IMG/VR virus record: IMGVR_UViG_2869953405_000008
Span: 1 to 21,533 of that record
Reading direction: 5' to 3' (one strand)
Length of the DNA: 21,533 nt
From: a virus
Lineage: Duplodnaviria > Heunggongvirae > Uroviricota > Caudoviricetes
Positions 3,001-6,000 of this stretch are shown here, one piece after another. The stretch's first letter is position 1. Every line of letters begins with the position of its first letter. Position numbers: made by a program.

Positions 3001-6000
3001 GGTTCGTAGGCCACTCAATATCAGGTGCAGTTGATGTATCAACACGGTTCAGCAACACCCGATACTTTTTCTAGGCTTCCACCACCAGCACGACAAGATG
3101 CCGCATACAGTGCCCCAGTCAGTCCAGTTTTCAGACAACCAGTGCGTCACCTTTTTGAAGGCGCTTTAAAGCACGTTTTAATCCAGGTCGGCCTGTCCTT
3201 GTTCCGCTTAATTTATCTTCAAATATTTGTTCATATCCTGCACAAACAAGAGCGTTTCGTTGCAGGTCTGTATTCTGGTCATTTGTTGATACCCTTACAT
3301 AGCCAATCAGCACGCTGAATCTCCCGTCCAAAAGCACAAATCATGCCATGCAGGCCAGAAACCGCCATTATCTAAAACCTCGGTTTACGAGAACTCGGCA
3401 CAAGCGGGGAGAAAATACCGTTACTCAGTACAGCGAATACCTGGACTAATCGACAAACATTCAGCGGTGGCCTTTCTGGTGAACTATCCGGCAATGCTTC
3501 TACAGCTGCAAAATTAAAAACTGCCAGGAAAATAAGCAATGTGGCTTTTGATGGTTCCTCCGATATCACATTAAAAGCAAGTCATGTTGGTGCGTTTGCC
3601 TTAGGGAAAACAGGAAGCACCGTTGCGAATGATAAAGCAGTTGGATGGAACTGGAGTAGCGGAGCCTATAACGCAACTATTAGTGGTGCATCAACGTTAA
3701 TTATTCATTTTTATATGGGAGAAGGAAGTTGTCCTGCAGCTCAGTTTCGGATTAATTATAAAAATGGCGGTATTTTTTATCGTTCAGCCCGTGATGGTTA
3801 TGGTTTTGAAGCCGACTGGTCCGAATTTTACACCACCAGAAAACCTTCAGCAGGAGATGTTGGTGCACTGCCGTTATCTGGTGGTCAACTGAATGGTGCA
3901 CTGGGTATCGGAACATCCAGTGCTCTTGGCGGTAATTCGATTGTATTGGGTGATAATGACACGGGCTTTAAACAAAAAGGCGATGGTAATCTGGATGTTT
4001 ATGCTAATAACGTCCATGTTATGCGCTTTGTCTCCGGAAGCATTCAAAGTAATAAAACCATAAATATTACGGGACGTGTTAATCCCTCGGATTACGGTAA
4101 CTTTGATTCCCGCTATGTGAGAGATGTCAGACTTGGCACACGAGTTGTTTAGACCATGAAGAAAGGCGTGATGTATGAAAAATCAGGCCATGTAATCACG
4201 GGGCTTGGTATTATCGGTGAAGTCGATGGTGATGATCCGGCAGTATTCAGACCAATACAAAAGTTAATTAACGGAACATGGTATAACGTATCGCAGGTAT
4301 AATCATGCAGCATTTAAAAAACATTGTCGCAGGTAATCCAAAAACCGTTGAACAATACCAGCTAACAAAGAATTTTGATGTTATCTGGTTATGGTCCGAA
4401 GATGGAAAAAATTGGCATGAGGAATTAAAAAACTTTCAGGAGGATACAATAAAACTGGCTTACACAGTTGAGGGAATAATTATTGCTATAGACAAGGATG
4501 TATCAGCAATTAATCCAGAAGGTTTAAGTGTCGTTGAGTTGCCTGATATTACAGCAAATCGCCGGGCTGATATTTCGGGCAACTGGATGTTCAAAGATGG
4601 TGCGGTGATAAAGCGAACTTATACCGAGGAAGAGCAAAGGCAACAAGCGGAAAATGAAAAGCAGAGCCTGCTGCAGCTCGTCAGGGATAAAACCCAGCTG
4701 TGGGACTCTCAGCTACAGCTGGGCATCATTTCCGATGAGAATAAACAAAAATTAACCGAGTGGATGCTCTATGCGCAGAAGGTTGAATCCACAGACACCT
4801 CCAGCCTGCCAGTAACGTTTCCCGAACAACCAGAATGAGAGAAGGCCCGCTATCGGGCCTTAATTTTTATTCAGGCTTTTGTGGCCATTCAGGATTTGCC
4901 GTATCCACACGGCTGACCAGAACACTGTAGCGTTCCCATGCTTCCAGTCGTGTGCGTTCCTCGTCTGTTGCCATATTCAGCCTGACAGCTCGTTCCAGCG
5001 GCTGGATGACTGATTCAGCTTCGGAAAGCAATGCGGCCTTTTGTGATTCGGCCTGTTGTTGCAGTTCCTGTTCTGTATATTCCCTCTTTACTACTTTACC
5101 ATCCAGAAACATCCATTTTCCGTTATTGTCTGCGTGACGATTTGCCGTAATATCAGGAACTTCAACTATGCTTAGCCCTTCAGGATTAATAGTTGAAACG
5201 TCTTTACTGACAGCAACGATGATGTTGTTCTCATCGTAAGCAATTTTTATGGTGTCTGGCTGAAAATTCTTTTGTTCCTCATACCAGTTTTTGCCATCTT
5301 CGCAAAAGAGCCATACCACGCCCGCTTTTTTAGTTAGCTGGTATTGTTCCGGTGTTTTCGGATTCCCGGCCTTAATATTTTTCAGGTGCATCATCTTAAA
5401 CACTCCCCACGTTGTACCATATTCCCCCAATCAATTTCTGAATTGGCCTTCTGGCAACAGTGTCGACAATATCATCCGCATTGCTGTTAATTGCGGCTGT
5501 TAAAACATAACCTGACGCATCGCCAAAGCCGTAGTCGCGCCATACGTTTTTATATTCAATGCTGCCAAGACGAATATCCCGAACGACATGATTATGCAGC
5601 CATGTGCTTAACCAGTTGTTTTCCCACACTGAACCATAAATATCGCCACTAGACGCAACTTGCGCACCACTTCCCAGCGCAAATTGAGGTAGCCTGAGTT
5701 TAACGGACACTCCTTCCTGAAATAGAATGGCATCAGAAGGAGCTAATAATGAGCAGAAAAACCCAACGTTACTCTAAAGAGTTCAAAGCCGAAGCTGTCA
5801 GAACGGTTCTTGAAAATCAACTTTCGATCAGTGAAGGCGCTTCCCGATTATCTCTTCCTGAAGGCACTTTAGGACAATGGGTTACCGCCGCCAGAAAAGG
5901 GCTCGGTACTCCTGGTTCCCGCACGGTGGCTGAACTGGAATCTGAAATTCTGCAACTGCGTAAGGCGTTAAATGAAGCTCGCCTTGAGCGAGATATATTA

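Follow-up and report, generated by a model that had tools for sequence, protein, structure and literature searches.

Inversion of a tail-fibre segment is a textbook host-range switch of phages. In phage Mu, the invertase gene gin and the invertible G segment are laid out in the order gin, site, S'v, U', U, Sv, site, Sc. A Shigella counterpart, made up of the B segment and its invertase gene pinB, has reportedly been described as well. The source of the B-pinB sequence (GenBank D00660) was later revised from S. boydii, and the system is functional in S. sonnei (PMC3241671). Inversion of the Hin type is explained by the invertasome model, and in the Hin system itself a 65-bp enhancer is situated some 100 bp away from a hix site (PMC3798978).

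The working of the ancestral switch considered here can be drawn by homology with Gin, Hin and PinB. Dimers of a serine invertase would have bound two inverted 26-bp sites, and a Fis-bound enhancer, located inside the 5' end of the invertase gene, would have brought these sites together in an invertasome. Strand exchange at the 2-bp core would then have inverted about 2.9 kb of DNA, joining the 622-codon constant part of a lambda-Stf-like fibre to either of two C-terminal exons, each accompanied by its own chaperone. Each flip would in this way have changed the exon/chaperone pair completing the fibre, and hence the host range.

What is left of this arrangement is found at positions 3074-5684 of the window, that is, of the whole 21,533-nt stretch of DNA that was analysed. 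The interval is a piece of the Shigella sonnei chromosome and belongs to the remnant of a lambdoid prophage. It is, with high probability, what remains of a Din-family (Gin/Pin/PinB-type) invertible tail-fibre segment whose switch is inoperable. The kind of system is already known, and its decay is the ordinary pseudogenisation typical of an IS-rich Shigella genome; what is documented here is the stepwise character of that decay. The steps comprise an old dead invertase allele held in common with E. coli, an apparently lineage-specific amber codon in the silent cassette, and nested IS600 and ISSso4 events which took the second crossover site and probably phage morphogenesis genes too.

Setting, layout and crossover site

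Positions 1-12838 of the window are 100% identical to CP180008.1 (locus L007). The prophage adjoins trpA and a remnant of ompW (394-651), whose match in E. coli NCTC86 lies next to yciE/yciF; in the fetched S. sonnei loci, the neighbours are trpC/B/A, an IS1 and phage genes. Along 3074-5684 come successively the 5' remnant of an invertase gene, a crossover site, the fibre exon Sv, the chaperone genes U and U', the end of the second fibre exon S'v, and then IS600. All the features named in the sequence-only reading were found at the coordinates given for them, and apart from the corrections below that reading was right in its essentials. The two cassettes are opposed, with Sv-U on the plus strand and U'-S'v, in which S'v is truncated, on the minus strand. 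As the locus stands, three defining features of a Din-family switch are missing: a complete invertase, a pair of sites and the constant part of the fibre. The switch, damaged in at least four respects, therefore cannot operate, having no enzyme, fewer than two sites and no constant part.

The single surviving crossover site, 26 bp long, occupies 3368-3393 on the minus strand and reads TTCTCGTAAACC GA GGTTTTAGATAA. When the window is queried with the Mu gix site at up to three mismatches, this is the one match obtained, at 23/26, and 100 shuffles of the window gave none. The site was also set against a curated table of Din-family sites (gix, hix, cix, pix and bix, with a 2-bp core and 12-bp half-sites; PMC3241671). 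It agrees with gixL/R at 23 of 26 positions and with bixR at 24 of 26, its outer half and GA core being identical to those of bixR; a GA core is shared by gix and bix. The claim of an intact site, first made from the sequence alone, thus held against the curated sites. NCTC86 and the S. sonnei genomes L005 and L011, to which we return below, have this site too. A gix-type search of the 21.5-kb window found no second crossover site anywhere, and the weak resemblance to the core at 2880 and at 14472 is no more than chance would give. The inverted pair is therefore reduced to one site.

Beside the site, positions 3134-3313 on the minus strand form a putative recombinational enhancer stretch, whose DNA is 97.2% identical to the first 180 nt of gin. 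The Gin enhancer is said to lie within the 5' part of gin, and by this homology the stretch probably still holds a Fis-dependent enhancer.

Both tail-fibre assembly chaperones have remained intact, as the sequence-only reading had proposed for its two Tfa genes. U (4305-4838, plus strand, 177 aa) and U' (4867-5394, minus strand, 175 aa) each match the whole Caudo_TAP profile, with E-values of 4.8e-34 and 7.9e-37, respectively. U has 99.3% DNA identity with the U gene of NCTC86, and the sole difference between U' and its L005 counterpart is synonymous. The two genes converge on a terminator-like GC-rich hairpin followed by a T-run (4842-4861, plus strand).

The dead invertase and the interrupted fibre exon

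The pin/gin-type invertase gene had been read as dead and truncated, and it is both. Its 5' remnant (3074-3313, minus strand) consists of 80 codons with a GTG start and two in-frame TGAs. Translated from 3313 to 3074 it gives VLIGYVRVSTNDQ...GDALVV*KLD*LGHCMRHLVVLVVEA* or, in a fuller reading, VLIGYVRVSTNDQNTDLQRNALVCAGYEQIFEDKLSGTRTGRPGLKRALKRLQKGDALVV*KLD*LGHCMRHLVVLVVEA*, and the frame is closed by a TAG at 3071-3073. The comparators were Mu Gin, the intact invertase of a P2-like prophage (E. coli DFK.1) and e14 PinE; against all three, the TGA at 3131-3133 takes the place of Trp61 and that at 3119-3121 the place of Arg65. The GTG start was considered as a further defect and rejected, since Mu gin and the intact DFK.1 invertase begin in the same manner.

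With the stops masked, the remnant matches the Pfam Resolvase profile (PF00239, E=9e-22) over positions 2-86 of 145 only, and a Pfam search of this masked remnant found no HTH_7 domain. Everything beyond about codon 80 is gone, the DNA-binding domain included. The remnant is thus clearly homologous to Gin and PinE without being a complete invertase made of a catalytic domain and a C-terminal HTH. Its codons 1-60 show 97.2% DNA identity with Mu gin, while codons 61-80 are nearer to e14 PinE than to Gin (MRHLVVLV).

After about codon 80, the invertase sequence gives way to the 3' end of a tfa gene (2938-3084, minus strand), which is fused to the broken invertase gene and was recognized from its translation and from repeat families D2 and D6. 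This tfa end and positions 1888-2035 are direct repeats of about 90% identity, situated on either side of a class I SAM-dependent methyltransferase gene (2264-2932). Both TGAs and the same tfa fusion are also present in E. coli NCTC86, where the annotation places a partial tfa directly after a partial recombinase. The 60-aa product ended by the first TGA has exact matches on about 1000 or more contigs, some of them named E. coli. In addition, of 5426 complete E. coli genomes, 538 contain the 86-nt stretch 3075-3160 with at least 90% identity, in most cases 95-99%. Because it is carried by NCTC86, by these E. coli-named exact products and by the 538 genomes, the dead pin allele must be old.

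The invertase-proximal cassette, which is the silent one, starts with the C-terminal fibre exon Sv (3394-4302, plus strand), identified by a Pfam gp37_C match. Its translation, LGLRELGTSGEK...RLGTRVV*TMKKGVMYEKSGHVITG..., is interrupted by an amber codon, TAG, at 4150-4152. The interruption had been noticed from the outset and taken for a Tyr-to-stop change. The expressed fibre of NCTC86 corrects this detail: it has Gln at that place, and the change is from CAG to TAG (GTTGTTCAGACC in NCTC86 vs GTTGTTTAGACC in the window). The Sv tip is 99.5% identical to the expressed exon of NCTC86. Near 3833-3838, one of three ACC codons is missing from Sv, in frame (TTTRKP to TTRKP), and all three are kept in NCTC86, DFK.1 and Mu S'. 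The amber-terminated 203-aa ORF (3541-4152) is matched exactly on at least 1000 contigs and is annotated as "putative bacteriophage tail protein [Shigella sonnei Ss046]". The proper annotation here would be pseudogenes and remnants, and beyond annotation the locus has little weight.

Could these stops simply be errors of sequencing or assembly, with an intact invertase, an intact exon and a switch that is still live? We give this practically no credence. The earlier reading had itself singled out the three stop codons for verification, and the TAG as well as both TGAs are present in all 8 independent assemblies fetched. Since each of the truncated products is also found on about 1000 contigs or more, the stops are not sequencing errors. 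NCTC86 has both TGAs too and, the stops aside, the invertase gene would still end at about codon 80, next to the single crossover site of the 21.5 kb.

The amber, for its part, looks specific to the S. sonnei lineage. The fibre tip was found in only six E. coli genomes, and none of them matches the 61-mer around the TAG exactly. The amber-containing 34-mer had no match in a one-genome-per-species contig collection that possibly holds no S. sonnei genome.

The IS600 boundary and the undeleted sister genomes

The U'-S'v cassette ends abruptly in an insertion sequence. The last 96 codons of the S'v exon (5399-5684) and its stop remain (5396-5684, minus strand), cut by IS600 and identical to the C-terminus of a 918-aa fibre encoded in L005. 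The ORF running across the junction (5396-5710) is carried by 585 contigs, under the name "bacteriophage tail protein [Shigella sonnei]". The sequence-only reading had S'v, the second crossover site and the constant part all replaced by IS600. The site and the constant part are indeed gone, but S'v was not wholly replaced.

IS600 is a member of the IS3 family with two transposase frames and a target duplication of usually 3 bp. Three 1264-bp copies are present, with ORFs matching HTH_Tnp_1 and rve, and the IS600 annotation is also found in E. coli matches. Copy 1, at the boundary (5685-6948, plus strand), is identical to copy 2 (10412-11675), and copy 3 differs by one base. A GGA target duplication accompanies copy 2, and none is seen at copy 3. 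At copy 1 the duplication is likewise absent, the flanks being AAT and GTT. The flanks of copies 1 and 3 were also considered as the signature of an inversion, which was rejected as they do not pair.

Directly to the right of copy 1 lies the left end of ISSso4, an IS21-family element (6949-7234, 286 bp, with 23-bp subterminal repeats), which interrupts the prophage lysozyme gene some 18 codons in. Beyond it come genes for lysis and late regulation (YdfR, holin, SASA esterase, DNA methylase, Q and RusA), on the minus strand like S'v and U'. Because copy 1 has no target duplication and its other flank is ISSso4 within the lysozyme gene, we are dealing with an IS-bounded deletion and not with a simple insertion. 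From gene order and strand, we infer that one single lambdoid prophage lost everything from the lysozyme gene to the middle of S'v, including head and tail genes, J, lom and the constant part of the fibre; the whole head and tail gene region was probably taken.

The missing fibre portion can be seen in two S. sonnei genomes that escaped the deletion, L005 (CP032523.1) and L011 (CP064376.1). Over window positions 1918-5684, they are 99.95% identical to the window, with just two base differences, one at 3113 and a synonymous one at 4990. In place of IS600, they carry a complete 918-aa lambda-Stf-like fibre, followed by lom and J. The N-terminus of this fibre is the prophage tail fibre N-terminal domain PF08400 (E=3.6e-69), and in L005 its ORF passes in frame through the distal crossover site (...VIEYLGLQETVN... 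or, in a longer reading, ...AAVIEYLGLQETVNKAG...). This second site (L005 9980-10005) has the opposite orientation to the first and is identical to curated bixL at 26/26; in window terms, it would lie 600 bp past the IS600 junction. The second site and the constant part, an in-frame 5' fibre part outside the segment, are thus present in both sister genomes exactly where their loss at the IS600 boundary had been predicted. Together with them, the deletion removed about the first 200 codons of the joined exon. Measured from site to site, the segment is 2942 bp long in L005, 2990 bp in NCTC86, 2774 bp in DFK.1 and 3084 bp in Mu G.

The 918-aa fibre ends in S'v, and therefore S'v-U' was the joined cassette and the amber-bearing Sv-U the silent one. 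Lying in a silent cassette, the amber is consequently not what disabled the fibre; IS600 cut the other cassette, to which the constant part had been joined.

The sister genomes also bear on whether the segment was ever invertible at all. Convergent fibre/chaperone modules might have been assembled by prophage mosaicism, with an invertase fragment nearby by chance, and the cassettes are in fact mosaic, the S'v tip being unrelated to the tip of NCTC86 or of Mu S. Such an origin is nevertheless barely conceivable, for the 26-bp sites fall exactly at the exon boundaries and are inverted, the distal one being bixL at 26/26 and the proximal one matching bixR at 24/26 with the same outer half and core. 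Moreover, the segment has the size and gene order of Mu G, and the constant fibre part of L005 continues in frame through the site. The remnant of a formerly invertible segment is thus the reading that we retain.

Cassette orientation and comparison with known systems

Sv-U is proximal to the invertase gene in the window and distal to it in NCTC86, at 99.3% (U) and 99.5% (Sv tip) identity, so that the same dead pin allele stands next to opposite cassette arrangements. This difference is consistent with an inversion having taken place after the two lineages diverged. Homologous recombination could also account for it: the two exons of NCTC86, which lie in inverted orientation, specify the same protein sequence for most of their extent, and this could support a RecA-dependent inversion. 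Cassette replacement could be another explanation, the other cassette of NCTC86 being different.

Another Din invertase of S. sonnei, such as PinB or the Gin homologue of a Mu-like prophage, might act on the remnant in trans, using the surviving site and enhancer. We regard this as improbable, although several observations speak for it in addition to the opposite arrangements around the shared allele. The crossover site has survived intact, as has the probable enhancer region, and Din invertases reportedly cross-react between systems. B-pinB (D00660) is functional in S. sonnei (PMC3241671), and an intact 190-aa invertase (P0229), source-named S. sonnei, is encoded in a Mu-like prophage, where the adjoining chaperone gene is found in opposite orientations in two loci (L012 vs L013). 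The search for a trans-acting invertase, which the sequence-only reading had suggested, saw P0229 on draft contigs of other samples and placed none in the genome of the window.

Against trans action, all 8 S. sonnei loci share one and the same orientation, including L005 and L011 with both of their sites, and the NCTC86 difference is explicable by homologous recombination, as noted above. Among the best 120 of 450 Sv-exon protein hits, none joined the constant part to the amber exon, a weak test in that these hits are cluster representatives and PGAP leaves pseudogenes untranslated. As for the strain of the window, its single site means that it cannot invert the segment, whatever the enzyme. 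If trans action did occur, sister strains with both sites would toggle between a full and an amber-truncated fibre, and the orphan site of window-type strains could seed rare chromosomal rearrangements with distant sites.

With the locus understood as an inoperable remnant, its place among the known systems can be stated. The e14 P segment with pinE, along with the Rac and Qin pin loci, offers a similar picture of a cryptic-prophage invertase beside opposed stf/tfa cassettes. e14 and Qin had been proposed at first as comparators, and the pin part does align, at 74% DNA identity. Nothing else aligns: the e14 fibre and tfa genes are unrelated in DNA, and pinE is intact. Far closer comparators are Mu G-gin, the B-pinB sites and the NCTC86 prophage.

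The prophage of E. coli NCTC86 (L001), at the ompW-yciE position, shares with the S. sonnei locus the dead pin allele, the proximal site and the flanking methyltransferase gene, and its Sv-U cassette is 99.3-99.5% identical to that of the window. Unlike the window, it keeps both sites, has no IS600, and reads from the constant part into an Sv-U cassette with CAG in place of the amber. Its other cassette is of another type, with a U' that is 81.6% identical and an unrelated tip.

Mu G-gin has the same gene order, an invertase 5' end that is 97.2% identical, chaperones at about 80-84%, a site matching at 23/26 and the same GTG start, and it aligns with the query at 84% identity over about half of the query's length. 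The Mu segment measures 3084 bp vs 2942 bp in S. sonnei. The differences lie in the host element, which in S. sonnei is a lambdoid prophage with a lambda-Stf-type N-terminus (PF08400) and not the constant part of Mu S, in the unlike fibre tips, and in the loss of function of the S. sonnei system.

The B-pinB system of Shigella likewise has a Mu-G-like segment of about 3 kb, in the same genus. The distal site of L005 is identical to bixL (26/26), and the site of the window agrees with bixR at 24/26. The inner half is TTCCTGTAAACC in each of the B sites and TTCTCGTAAACC in the proximal site of the window. In addition, a protein annotated bv' in E. coli DEC6B (P0024) is 90% identical over 73% of the Sv exon. 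The main difference is that pinB is functional, whereas the invertase gene of the window is a stop-ridden stump of 80 codons. At the level of sequence, then, the closest complete relatives of the S. sonnei locus are Mu G-gin and the NCTC86 prophage, and the closest curated system, as compared through the curated site table and judged by site identity, is Shigella B-pinB.

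IS600 copies and the order of genes

Three copies of IS600 punctuate the window, the first at 5685-6948, the second at 10412-11675, and the third at 18041-19304. Copies 1 and 2 are identical in sequence and copy 3 differs by one base; only copy 2 is framed by a target duplication, the 3-bp GGA. In one S. sonnei assembly (L008), the stretch between copy 1 and copy 3 is inverted, and the gene order of the window is thus polymorphic through IS600 recombination. Copy 2 is flanked on both sides, between an esterase gene and a DNA-methylase gene, by direct repeats that share 82-94% identity (window 10103-10339 and 11857-12073); they belong to families D3 to D5 and include hairpin-like GC-rich motifs.

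Nested scars and the left end

The stretch that directly follows copy 1 (window 6949-7283) begins with 286 bp from the left end of ISSso4, an IS21-family element; about four subterminal repeats of 23 bp lie there, at 7103-7226. ISSso4 interrupts a lysozyme gene of the prophage, of which about 18 codons precede the break (7231-7283 on the minus strand, MSAKIKYGLSAAVLALIA). IS600 copy 1 and the ISSso4 end are nested IS scars. The window itself opens within IS1, with part of InsB at 1-378, followed by a short remnant that matches the E. coli ompW region; these features (window 1-651) fix the position of the prophage, with trpA on one side and the ompW-yciE region on the other.

Tail-fibre genes, intact and decayed

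A class I SAM-dependent methyltransferase gene (2264-2932) is bracketed by two direct repeats, at 1888-2035 and 2938-3084, of about 148 nt and about 90% identity. Each repeat is the 3′ end of a tail-fibre-assembly (tfa) gene, and the same repeat-methyltransferase-repeat layout is found in E. coli NCTC86. The gene looks like cargo inserted amid tfa remnants.

An intact invertase, P0229, is encoded by a Mu-like prophage on draft contigs (loci L012 and L013, about 4076-6000); one source names it S. sonnei. The adjoining tail-fibre chaperone gene points one way in L012 but the other in L013, and the region looks like a short, live invertible segment.

In the silent fibre exon of the window, a run of ACC-ACC-ACC is one codon short (3833-3838). 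This is an in-frame deletion of the slippage type and, beside the amber codon, the second lesion of the exon: the full run is kept in E. coli NCTC86, in the P2-like prophage of E. coli DFK.1, and in the S′ fibre of phage Mu.
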